Origin: an uncultured Geobacteraceae bacterium
GTDB lineage: Bacteria; Desulfobacterota; Desulfuromonadia; Desulfuromonadales; BM103
Assembly (NCBI GenBank): GCA_964418505.1
Contig: CAYQLP010000001.1
Location: 1,665 to 65,664, forward strand
Direction of reading: 5' to 3'
Length of the DNA stretch: 64,000 nt
Shown here: piece by piece, positions 19,033-52,816 of the stretch
How the letters are laid out: each line of letters begins with the position of its first letter
How positions within the stretch are numbered: the first letter of the stretch is position 1
Position numbers and translations under genes: made by a program
The notes under the pieces: model-generated
Seen by the model: only the letters and a program-made list of their open reading frames with translations
Databases searched by the model: none
What the model was told of the DNA's origin: nothing

Positions 19033-19204
19033 GGAAACCTCCGGGACGCCGGCGGGGTACTCCGCCGTTTCTGAATTTAAGCCCCCGCCGGCGGGGGTTG
19101 TCAAGTTGCCGGGCAGCGAAGCGTATGTTATTTTTTTTATTGGGAATCATCAGATCATCTGCAGGGTCCCCGCCGGGCACCCCGGGCGGGGCGGGAGGAG
19201 TCGC

Positions 19205-42751: not shown

Positions 42752-42781
42752 AAAAAAAAGGCCCGGCGTTAACGCCGGGCC
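42752..42781 (-). terminator. rho-independent terminator after the MtrB-like gene
   Basis: The minus strand reads GGCCCGGCGTTAACGCCGGGCC followed by TTTTTTTT, 27 nt after the TGA at 42808-42810. Confidence 0.85.
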
Positions 42782-48599: not shown

Positions 48600-50033
<1,434 letters not shown>

Positions 50034-50157
50034 GGCTTTGCCTCCGGATCGGTGCTGGGCACCTCCCCCAAGCTTACCCACCGCTCGCCAAAAGTCACGC
50101 CGGGGCCTGTGCAGAGAGGACTGGACGCCTCCCCACCCGTTGATTTATTTTGAGCCC

Positions 50158-51369
50158 ATGAACGACAGACACTCTCCGCTCCGCCGCATCTACCCCTTCT
50201 CCGCCCTGCTCGGCCAGGAGGCACTGCAGACCGCCCTGCTGGTCAACGCCGTCGATCCGCTGATCGGCGGGGTGCTGGTGCGCGGCGAAAAGGGGACCGG
50301 CAAGTCCACCGCTGCGCGGGCCCTGGCCGGGCTCCTGCCGCCGTTGACCGTGGTCGCCGACTGCCCCTGCCACTGCGATCCCGACCAGGCCGACATGCAG
50401 CACACCGCCTGCCGGGAGCGCCGGGCGGCAGGGGAAAGCCTGCCGCGGGCCGCAATGGCAACCCCCTTCGTCGACCTGCCGCTCTCGGCCAGCGAGGACC
50501 GCCTGGTCGGCACCATCGAACTGGAGCGCACCCTGGCCACCGGCCGCCGCCACTTCCAGCCGGGGCTGCTCGCCGCGGCCAACCGCGGCATCCTCTACGT
50601 CGACGAGGTCAATCTCCTCCCCGATCACCTGGTCGACCTGCTTCTCGATGCGGCGGCCTCGGGAGTCAACACCGTCGAGCGCGACGGCCTGCACGACAGC
50701 CACCCGGCGCGCTTCCTGCTGATCGGCACCATGAACCCGGAGGAGGGGGAGCTGCGGCCCCAGTTCCTTGACCGCTTCGGCCTGTGCGTCGCCGTCAGCG
50801 GCCTGCCGGCGGCGGCGATGCGCCGCGAGATCGTCCTGCGCCGCCTGGCCTTCGATCGCGACCCGCAAGCCTTCACCGCCCGTTTCGCCGCTGCCGAAGA
50901 ACTGCTGGCCGGCCAGGTGGAAAGGGCGCGGCAGGCTCTCGAGGCGGTCGACGTGCCGGTTGCGGCCATCGACCGTGCCGTGGAACTGGCCGCCGCCGCC
51001 CGCACCCAGGGGCATCGCGCCGAGCTGGTCCTGGTGCGCACCGCCCGGGCCCTGGCCGCCCTCTGCGAACGCCCGGCGGTCGGCGAAGCCGAGCTGCGCG
51101 AGGCGGCCCTCCTGGTCCTCCCCCACCGCCTGGACGGCGGCGGGCTGAGCGATCCCGAGCGCAACGCCGGACGTCTGGCGGAGATCCTCGCCGAGGCCTC
51201 CAGCCTCTCCCAGGCCCCGTCGCCGGCGGCGGCCGATGAAGAACTCCCCCTGCTCATCGACGAGGACCTGACCATCCCCGGAGCGGCGGCCGCCGGCGCC
51301 ATGTTCTTCACTTACCTCAAAAAAAAAGTCCCGAGCGTCTTTTCACCGCCACTGACCGCGACCTGCTGA
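50158..51369 (+). CDS. ChlI/BchI-like AAA+ ATPase (Mg/Co-chelatase I-type domain) with linker-like tail
   Basis: Start at MNDRHSPLRRIYPFSALLGQEALQTALLVNAV. Walker A GEKGTGKST, Walker B LYVDEVNLL. It ends 42 nt after an A9 run. Confidence 0.8.
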   Translation: MNDRHSPLRRIYPFSALLGQEALQTALLVNAVDPLIGGVLVRGEKGTGKSTAARALAGLLPPLTVVADCPCHCDPDQADMQHTACRERRAAGESLPRAAMATPFVDLPLSASEDRLVGTIELERTLATGRRHFQPGLLAAANRGILYVDEVNLLPDHLVDLLLDAAASGVNTVERDGLHDSHPARFLLIGTMNPEEGELRPQFLDRFGLCVAVSGLPAAAMRREIVLRRLAFDRDPQAFTARFAAAEELLAGQVERARQALEAVDVPVAAIDRAVELAAAARTQGHRAELVLVRTARALAALCERPAVGEAELREAALLVLPHRLDGGGLSDPERNAGRLAEILAEASSLSQAPSPAAADEELPLLIDEDLTIPGAAAAGAMFFTYLKKKVPSVFSPPLTATC

Positions 51370-52196
51370 GCGCCGCACCGCCGCCCCCCGCCAGGCGTCG
51401 CGGCCGGGCCCGGCAGGGGAGTGCCCGGACCGAATCAGGGCGCCGCGGTCGGCGCACCGGCAGCACCCGCCGGCATGCCGGCGAGTTGCTGCACTGCCCC
51501 GACCTGGGGGCAACCGTCGCCGCCATCCTCGCTGATCGCGCGGCTGACGCCCCGCCGCTCCCCCTGCGCCCCGCCAGCAGCGACTGGCACCTGCAGCGCT
51601 TCGCCCAACGCCCCCACCGCCTGGTGCTCTTCGCCGTCGATGCTTCCGACTCCATGGGCGACGGCCCGGAAACCCGCATGGCGGCAGCCCTCGGTGCCGC
51701 GGCCGCCCTGGCCCGCCGCGCCTACCTGAACCGCGACCAGGTGGCGCTGATCACCTTCCGCGACCATGCGGCGACCTTGGTCGTGCCCCCGACCGGGAGC
51801 GCCATGCGCGTCCACCGCCTGCTCCGCCGCCTGGTTGTCGGCGGCGCCACCCCTCTGGCCGACGGCCTGCGCCTGGCCGGCGAGACCCTGCGCAACGCGC
51901 GCCGCAAGGACCCGCTGCTCGAGCTGCTTCTGGTCCTGGTTTCCGACGGCGACGCCACCGTCCCCCTGCGGCGCGGCGGCGACCCCCTGGCCGACGCTTT
52001 GGCCATGGCCGCCGAGCTGCGCCAAAGCGGGATTGCCGGGGTGGTCATCGACACCGGCACCTCGCCGCCGGCCCAGCGCCAGCTGCCGCGCCTCGCCCGG
52101 GAGCTTGGCGCGACCTGCCGGCACCTCCACGAACTGACCGGCAATAACATCCTCCGCCTCCTCGACGCCGGCCTGGCCGCAAGAGTCCAGCCATGA
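51327..52196 (+). CDS. VWA (ChlD/BchD C-terminal-like) reading frame with no canonical start before 51486
   Basis: The -1 frame relative to the ATPase is open from 51240. It reads ...RRGRARQGSARTESGRRGRRTGS...DLGATVAAIL...LVLFAVDASDSMG (MIDAS DxSxS)...GGATPLADGL. The first ATG/GTG/TTG is the TTG at 51486. Confidence 0.65.
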   Translation, partial: SPERLFTATDRDLLSAAPPPPARRRGRARQGSARTESGRRGRRTGSTRRHAGELLHCPDLGATVAAILADRAADAPPLPLRPASSDWHLQRFAQRPHRLVLFAVDASDSMGDGPETRMAAALGAAAALARRAYLNRDQVALITFRDHAATLVVPPTGSAMRVHRLLRRLVVGGATPLADGLRLAGETLRNARRKDPLLELLLVLVSDGDATVPLRRGGDPLADALAMAAELRQSGIAGVVIDTGTSPPAQRQLPRLARELGATCRHLHELTGNNILRLLDAGLAARVQP

Positions 52197-52816
52197 GCCA
52201 CGCGGACATCTCCCTTGCCGCCATCCGCCAGGTTTTAGCCGGCCACCAGCCGGCCCTGCTCCCCGTCGACCGGCCCCACGCGGCAGTCGCCCTGCTCCTC
52301 GCCGAAGGGCCCCAGGCCCCTGAAGCACTCTTCATCCTGCGCGCCCGTCACGAAGGCGATCCCTGGTCGGGGGACATCGGCTTCCCCGGCGGCCGGGTCG
52401 CCCCCGCTGACGGCCACCCCCGCCGCACCGCCGAGCGCGAGAGCAGCGAGGAACTGGCCCTCGACCTGGCCACCTGCGACTACCTCGGGCGCCTTGACGA
52501 CCTGCGCGGCGCCACCCTGCCGATCCTGGTCTCCGGCTTCGTCTACGCCGCCCCCGCCCGCCCCTTCCTGCAGCCCAACCACGAAGTCGCCGCCACCTTC
52601 TGGTTCCCCCTCGACCTGCTCCTTGACCCGGCGCGCCATCGCCTCGAGGAGTTCACCTACCGCGGGCGCGCCACCCGCCAGCCGGTCGCCGACCTCCTCG
52701 GTCCGGGCACCCCGCTGCTGTGGGGGATCACCTACCGCCTGCTGCGCGGCTTTTTCAGCCTGCTCGACCAGCCCTTCGGCCTCGCGGCCCCCCCACCCTC
52801 CCCTGACCGCCAATAA
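52193..52816 (+). CDS. Nudix hydrolase (CoA pyrophosphatase-like)
   Basis: 207 aa with Nudix box GFPGGRVAPADGHPRRTAERESSEELAL. ATGA overlap with the VWA frame stop. Confidence 0.75.
   Translation: MSHADISLAAIRQVLAGHQPALLPVDRPHAAVALLLAEGPQAPEALFILRARHEGDPWSGDIGFPGGRVAPADGHPRRTAERESSEELALDLATCDYLGRLDDLRGATLPILVSGFVYAAPARPFLQPNHEVAATFWFPLDLLLDPARHRLEEFTYRGRATRQPVADLLGPGTPLLWGITYRLLRGFFSLLDQPFGLAAPPPSPDRQ

Follow-up and report, generated by a model that had tools for sequence, protein, structure and literature searches.

The A9 run between two overlapping frames

We analysed a locus in a stretch of 64,000 nucleotides (nt) from an uncultured Geobacteraceae bacterium (contig CAYQLP010000001.1, positions 1,665 to 65,664; the whole stretch is referred to as the window). 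Here a gene for a ChlI/BchI-like AAA+ ATPase is followed, in the -1 frame, by a coding frame for a VWA domain, and both overlap at a run of nine adenines (A9, Table 1). An earlier inspection of the letters alone (the sequence-only reading) had suggested that one slip on this run joins the two frames and thereby provides I-type and D-type chelatase subunits from a single locus. Its statements on the sequence, i.e. the A9 run, the ChlI-like open reading frame (ORF) and the start-less -1 frame with its metal ion-dependent adhesion site (MIDAS), all hold. A frame scan confirmed that the open part of the -1 frame begins at 51240 and contains no ATG, GTG or TTG before 51486.

Table 1. Features of the ChlI/VWA locus and its flanking genes (positions in the window).
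Feature	Position	Strand	Basis
NAPRTase/pncB, flanks the ChlI/VWA gene	48600..50081	-	Pfam
Zero-frame ORF, ChlI/BchI-like AAA+ ATPase, 403 amino acids, short product of standard decoding	50158..51369	+	translation, Pfam, TIGR02030, solved structures
Walker A, GEKGTGKST	50284-50310	+	zero-frame translation
Walker B, ILYVDEVN	50590-50613	+	zero-frame translation
Putative A9 slip site, context CTC AAA AAA AAA G, in-phase heptamer A_AAA_AAA	51319..51327	+	sequence
Coding part in the -1 frame, 289 codons and a stop: Pro-rich/basic linker, then VWA (integrin-I-like) domain	51327..52196	+	translation, Pfam VWA_2/VWA, 2x31_A, fused ChlD alignment
+1-frame stop TGA	51353..51355	+	read from sequence
Zero-frame stop TGA, 13 codons past the last AAA, ends the short product	51367..51369	+	sequence, translation
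TTG, first ATG/GTG/TTG of the VWA frame	51486..51488	+	frame scan
MIDAS motif DASDSMG	51639-51659	+	-1-frame translation
NUDIX hydrolase gene	52193..52816	+	Pfam NUDIX; weak match to CoA pyrophosphatase

The C-terminus of the zero-frame ORF reads ...FFTYLKKKVPSVFSPPLTATC, that is ...PGAAAAGAMFFTYLKKKVPSVFSPPLTATC. The VWA frame ends with a stop codon at 52194-52196 and shares 130 nt with the zero-frame ORF. Its translation contains ...KKSPERLFTATDRDLL... and later ...VDASDSMG...; from the A-run on it reads KKSPERLFTATDRDLLSAAPPPPARRRGR... and further along ...LVLFAVDASDSMGDG.... The MIDAS pattern (DxSxS...T...D) is present in this frame as DASDSMG, followed by GGATPL and VSDGDA. As the +1 frame is closed by a TGA, a long product is possible only in the -1 frame and a +1 shift results in a short product. 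The trans-frame product comprises 679 amino acids with the junction ...YLKKK-SPERLF..., i.e. ...FFTYLKKKSPERLF....

Pfam assigns Mg_chelatase and AAA_lid_2 to the first ORF and VWA_2/VWA to the second. The N-terminal part matches solved ChlI/BchI structures (E ~1e-85), whereby Walker A, Walker B, NPEEGELRPQ and LDRFG are aligned together with the sensor and Arg-finger regions, and the 403-residue ORF scores 363 bits against TIGR02030 (BchI-ChlI). The C-terminal part matches the integrin-I domain of BchD (2x31_A, E 2e-17). Residues 12-655 of the fusion cover positions 1-638 of 641 of the TIGR02442 profile (putative cobaltochelatase, ChlID type) in one stretch with 599.3 bits, whereas the 403-residue ORF alone covers only positions 1-318. 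The earlier assertion that linker and integrin-I domain follow the AAA module as in ChlD/BchD is borne out by this profile and by 2x31_A.

The homology continues across the slip point. Fused relatives show ...VPGSAAAGS[IM]LFSFLKKK[T]xE[KR]xF[DE]PDE... and, ahead of the VWA domain, ...GRYxR...; at the junction ...FLKKK[T/S]xE[K/R]xF..D.. is likewise found. The trans-frame product ...IPGAAAAGAMFFTYLKKK-SPERLFTATDRD...GRRGRRTG... follows the fused pattern through the slip point, residue for residue. This conserved stretch, including the GRxxR motif, lies entirely upstream of the TTG at 51486. The TTG is located 53 codons downstream of the position where the homology to fused ChlD proteins begins and is hence unlikely to be the real start of the VWA protein.

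An A9 run is conspicuous in such GC-rich DNA, as had been noticed before. The local G+C content around it is 71-77%, and for runs of A8 or longer 0.14 matches are expected in the window while 4 are observed, a number that was reached in 0 of 100 shuffles. The other A8/T8 runs of the window are located only at 19131-19138 and 42752-42759, both intergenic. One of them is a T8 that precedes the ATG (19206) of an AsmA/DUF748-like gene by ~70 nt, the other is the minus-strand T-tail of a GC-rich hairpin resembling an intrinsic terminator.

A-run and two-frame layout in related loci

A protein 99% identical to the 403-residue ORF (P0001) is encoded on four contigs from independent short-read assemblies and four sequencing runs. 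The run is exactly A9 on each of the four, its flanks agree as well, and an ungapped comparison of the locus over 2039 nt gives 99.3% identity.

We searched the protein database using the trans-frame fusion as query. At 58-77% identity, the closest relatives form about 50 clusters and are of ChlI size with ~375-405 amino acids, apart from one outlier of 505 amino acids (P0014). More distant relatives (40-50% identity) are single proteins of 650-760 amino acids annotated as magnesium chelatase subunit D. The short relatives (<520 amino acids, about 50) end with ...FPG[SA]AAAG..LF[TA][YH]LKKK, mostly followed by ~14 variable residues, and P0014 is the sole exception. Since they share the LKKK end and mostly also the length of the tail, the whole clade has conserved the Lys-Lys-Lys run together with the stop position. 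The few source names given for them are Desulfuromonas or Desulfuromonadales.

Related loci were then compared at the DNA level. They were taken from one genome per species, from metagenomes and from contigs encoding selected close relatives; the genome and metagenome scans mostly returned relatives of ~50% identity, and closer ones were collected individually. In each locus the AAA+ and VWA parts were located by a script and their frames compared. In 62 loci the -1 frame encodes the VWA part, while 48 loci consist of one fused ORF. Seven are odd cases, four with the VWA part in +1 and three in frame but not as one ORF, among them a long-read metagenome-assembled genome (MAG) with evident indels. 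The sequence-only reading had proposed a comparison of orthologues, and its outcome is clear: an A-run lies inside the frame overlap in 62 of 62 -1 loci (53 clusters after merging near-duplicates).

Run lengths are A7 in 3 loci (3 clusters, all phase 2), A8 in 5 loci (5 clusters, all phase 1), A9 in 44 loci (35 clusters, 11, 12 and 12 of them in the three phases) and A10 in 10 loci (10 clusters, 9 in phase 1 and 1 in phase 2). Nine is thus the modal length (35/53 clusters, ten more have ten), and it is so in all phases and in different protein contexts. The zero-frame stop follows 2-39 nt past the run. In three loci (L085, L087 and L170) the context cCTTAAAAAAAAA places a -1-frame TAA over the start of the run. 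There the long frame opens only inside the run, so the change of frame must happen within it.

Gene callers annotate a split VWA gene in every relative that was fetched, each time with the start at a different spot. In the VWA frame a start first becomes possible 53-204 nt past the run, and this position is not conserved, which does not agree with orthologues having a normal VWA start, the arrangement that had been named as speaking against a slip.

A neighbour-joining tree built on the AAA+ part brings the -1 loci together: one clade of 48 leaves is 83% of the -1 type, and other clades of 25-27 leaves contain no -1 loci at all. For 51 of 58 -1 loci the nearest neighbour is of the -1 type as well. 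Judged by these sequence comparisons, the -1 arrangement is inherited and maintained and not a scatter of accidents.

Two further observations concern the relatives. The closest species-representative genome, a long-read MAG (L001, 7140-7400), shows A10 followed by an inconsistent downstream frame and no overlap, for which homopolymer or indel errors of the assembly are the simplest explanation. Moreover, 10 of the 48 fused relatives (L037, L077, L079, L098, L114, L116, L121, L137, L154 and L160) retain A8-A9 in the linker, and a stop of the -1 frame follows 0-14 nt downstream. The layout of these genes is reversed and resembles dnaX: standard decoding would give the long and slippage the short product. 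They lend support to the view that the production of both forms, rather than one particular layout, is under selection.

Proposed slippage on the run and competing explanations

We consider it very probable that the locus is a frameshifted chlD-type gene (fs-chlD) with a short ChlI-like product and a slipped, long ChlD-like product. Standard decoding of one mRNA would yield the ChlI-like AAA+ ATPase of 403 amino acids. In a fraction of expression events a one-base shift would take place on the A9 run and the -1 frame would then be followed up to 52196, so that the slipped product would combine the same AAA+ module with the Pro-rich/basic linker and the VWA/MIDAS domain. The homopolymer alone would suffice for this, either by RNA polymerase adding one A (an A10 transcript) or by the ribosome slipping -1 on A_AAA_AAA. 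Both events predict the same protein, ...LKKKSPER.... The suggestion that one slip joins both frames is supported by the conserved layout, by the homology across the junction and by the literature. The two products are predicted to form an AAA+ complex of the I/D type.

The principle and its use in this family are known, as the locus is a member of the already published family of frameshifted chlD genes. Antonov reportedly proposed in 2020 (Molecular Biology and Evolution) that the small chelatase subunit and likewise the medium one come from a single chlD gene. A magnesium chelatase cluster of -1 frameshifted genes with poly-A shift sites was described by Antonov et al. 2013 in Nucleic Acids Research (PMC3711429), each gene of which RefSeq had split into two adjacent genes. 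In E. coli reporters A7, A9 and A11 led to 10%, 40% and 63% frameshifting, respectively (PMC3711429). By analogy, the 40% of the published A9 chelatase site may serve as an estimate of the slip frequency here. Recoding of chelatase genes has its own section in the review by Atkins et al. 2016 (PMC5009743). Kuznetsov et al. 2022 found fs-chlD in anaerobes without the pathways for chlorophyll and B12 and without a gene for the large subunit, for example in Spirochaeta thermophila and Brevefilum fermentans (Anaerolineae), and stated the function of the I and D pair to be unknown (PMC9227772).

Our locus shares with this family the ChlI-like ORF followed by a VWA part in -1, the poly-A site (A_AAA_AAR, A7-A11) in the overlap, the existence of fused homologues and the coding of two subunits by one gene. 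It also resembles the published 'stage 1' class without a large subunit gene, which includes Spirochaeta and Anaerolineae, i.e. taxa that occur among the relatives found here. These A-run relatives stem from Spirochaetes, Anaerolineae/Chloroflexota as well as Desulfobulbales-like and Desulfuromonadales-like genomes, and since they overlap with the published group, the locus belongs to the described fs-chlD group. In contrast to the published cases, the clade of this locus has no conserved downstream structure, the gene shares a conserved operon with NUDIX, and the Desulfuromonadales(-like) host lineage is not named in PMC9227772.

A known parallel is dnaX with its products tau and gamma, which arise by -1 ribosomal frameshifting at A_AAA_AAG in E. 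coli and by transcriptional slippage at A9/T9 in Thermus thermophilus (PMC5009743). There too, two AAA+ products with a common N-terminus come from one gene by a slip on a run of A in lysine codons, in Thermus a homopolymer of nine bases. However, the slip leads to the shorter product in dnaX and to the longer product here, and the protein families are unrelated save for the AAA+ fold.

Several points speak against the interpretation as a slipping chelatase-type gene and have to be weighed. A downstream stimulator is not apparent, as the predicted folds of 51328-51420 (93 nt, z +1.3) and of 51290-51480 (191 nt, z -0.56) are no better than those of shuffled sequences and the RNAalifold consensus of eight orthologues downstream of the run contains 0 pairs. 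In the 39-nt overlap the amino acid identity of the -1 frame is only slightly higher than that of the zero frame (0.36 vs 0.29); substitutions are evenly distributed over the codon positions. The fusion stays below the curated NCBIfam cut-offs, both for TIGR02442 (599.3 vs 779.45) and for TIGR02031 (BchD-ChlD, 359.1 vs 499.55). Finally, an ORF as large as CobN/ChlH is missing from the 64-kb window, whose two ORFs above 1000 amino acids are GlnE-like and AsmA/DUF748-like.

As no conserved downstream structure is found and A9 is preferred in all three phases, slippage on the bare homopolymer is likely. In the published description of fs-chlD a downstream RNA structure is usual but not obligatory. 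The bacterial RNA polymerase slips efficiently in vivo at a length of nine, and Thermus dnaX uses the same length (PMC5009743). Probably both machines contribute, with RNA polymerase slippage being important at the length of A9.

A variant of the slippage model would dispense with RNA polymerase altogether and assume stimulated -1 ribosomal frameshifting only, similar to E. coli dnaX, with a heptamer A_AAA_AAR aided by a stem-loop downstream or a Shine-Dalgarno-like element upstream. The heptamer is in phase at this locus, and the published accounts name programmed ribosomal frameshifting and mention downstream structures (PMC9227772, PMC5009743). The short runs fit as well: the heptamer needs seven A's in one phase, such that A7 holds an in-phase A_AAA_AAA only in phase 2 and A8 in two phases including phase 1, and A7 and A8 are found only in such permitting phases (3/3 and 5/5). 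This is what a ribosomal contribution would predict, albeit from small numbers and partly related loci. However, a significant or conserved downstream structure is missing and so is a Shine-Dalgarno-like element upstream of the run. Moreover, the lengths peak sharply at nine with equal phases, i.e. two bases beyond the need of the heptamer and at the length where RNA polymerase slips efficiently (PMC5009743), and the reporter efficiency grows with run length from 7 over 9 to 11 (PMC3711429). We therefore regard a purely ribosomal mechanism as rather doubtful.

Alternatively, there could be two separate genes, with the VWA protein made by internal initiation or re-initiation, e.g. at the TTG at 51486, as in a MoxR/VWA-like pair and with no change of frame. 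Two-gene pairs of AAA+ and VWA proteins are common, and the gene callers do annotate a distinct VWA gene in every relative. Downstream initiation was furthermore seen beside frameshifting in some constructs of Antonov et al. 2013 (PMC3711429). Yet a conserved start is absent, with the first candidate at varying distance to the run, and the homology to fused ChlD starts at the run itself (KKK-[S/T]xERxF..D, then GRxxR), upstream of 51486. This model does not account for the A-run in all 62 loci or for the -1-frame stop at the start of the run in some of them. Separate genes are hence very improbable.

Even less credible is an event at the DNA level, i.e. a pseudogene in decay or else phase variation, in which slipped-strand mispairing at the A-run would switch the long form on and off genetically and cells would not make both products together. 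Poly-A tracts are hypermutable and the run length does differ between lineages from A7 to A11, but the VWA part is in -1 whatever the run length, because phase and length of the run vary together. Walker A, Walker B and MIDAS are intact in both halves at 50-77% identity across deep clades, and all ChlI-sized close relatives are split, with no in-frame allele among them.

A homopolymer miscall or assembly error hiding a true A10 and an ordinary fused chlD gene, the trivial alternative of the sequence-only reading, can practically be excluded: A9 tracts are error-prone on some platforms, fused genes exist (the 48 loci above) and the long-read MAG with its A10 looks like sequencing noise, but the same A9 is found in four independent short-read assemblies from different runs, the close relatives below 520 amino acids stop at the same place except for P0014, and 62 of 62 -1 loci from many projects share one frame relation although errors would go both ways.

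Gene neighbourhood and predicted function

The ATG of the NUDIX gene overlaps the stop codon of the VWA frame (ATGA, 52193-52196). The same order with the 4-nt overlap is found in 7 of 8 relatives of the clade. The ATGA overlap places the NUDIX gene in the same operon as the ChlI/VWA gene; a scan for promoters and terminators returned nothing between the three genes. A coupling of NUDIX translation to ribosomes that read the slipped frame is thereby possible.

The conserved gene order of the close clade comprises an AsmA/DUF748-like gene, a nicotinamidase (in some), an oppositely oriented NAPRTase, a ClC channel or beta-eliminating lyase, ChlI/VWA, NUDIX and PilZ, the latter usually being next after NUDIX. 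NAD-salvage neighbours of the ChlI/VWA-NUDIX operon are conserved in the clade, namely NAPRTase/pncB and, in relatives (L088, L169 and L172), a nicotinamidase of the isochorismatase family.

In the flanks of the frameshifted loci a CobN/ChlH-like gene was found in 0 of 62 cases (29 with at least 2.5 kb on both sides). Such a gene is present in the flanks of 15/48 fused chlD loci and of 15/52 stand-alone chlI loci. A search of the whole window with Rfam detected no family, including no cobalamin riboswitch, so there is no riboswitch by which the operon would be linked to B12. The frameshifted lineage resembles an 'orphan' pair of I and D subunits without an adjacent large subunit.

Compared to known ChlI/ChlD (BchI/BchD) and to ChlID of TIGR02442, the products possess all ChlI motifs, a C-terminal integrin-I/VWA domain with MIDAS and an end-to-end alignment, but they differ by scores below the cut-offs, the lack of a ChlH/CobN partner in the window and the lack of a cobalamin riboswitch. 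Pairs of an AAA+ ATPase of the MoxR type and a VWA/MIDAS partner, such as RavA-ViaA and CoxD-CoxE, work without a large chelatase subunit and often have roles in the insertion of metal cofactors or chaperone-like roles. Unlike those, the ATPase described here falls into the ChlI/BchI branch by sequence, and MoxR pairs are separate genes without recoding. We thus predict a ChlI/ChlD-like motor. Because the scores are below the cut-offs and no partner subunit is seen, a chelatase function and the membership in a Mg- or Co-chelatase equivalog are not established. The earlier argument that chelatase motors need both subunits therefore stands only in part: products of the I and D type are supported, whereas the chelatase role had been assumed and no large subunit gene is located nearby.

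The ChlI-like module carries an insertion between Walker A and Walker B with a Cys/His cluster, CPCHCDPDQADMQHTAC (50362-50412). In part of the relatives CP[FY]HC...H..C is kept, in others CPFNSDP is found instead. The cluster may be a metal-binding site.

A far-reaching combination can be formulated, in which mainly RNA polymerase slips in the orphan lineage and sets the ratio of I to D and, via the ATGA, the expression of NUDIX, with the motor serving a task other than the insertion of metal into tetrapyrroles. That all of this holds together seems unlikely.

The comparison adds several points to the known family. A9 is preferred whatever the codon phase, a conserved downstream structure is not part of the arrangement in this clade, the frameshifted lineage never adjoins CobN/ChlH, and about a fifth of the fused relatives show the dnaX-like layout. 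Annotation pipelines split the gene into 'ChlI' and a truncated 'VWA' with an arbitrary start, and the locus matters mainly for its correct annotation. Beyond that, it would represent a clean and strongly conserved natural case of two AAA+ subunits being made from one gene by homopolymer slippage.

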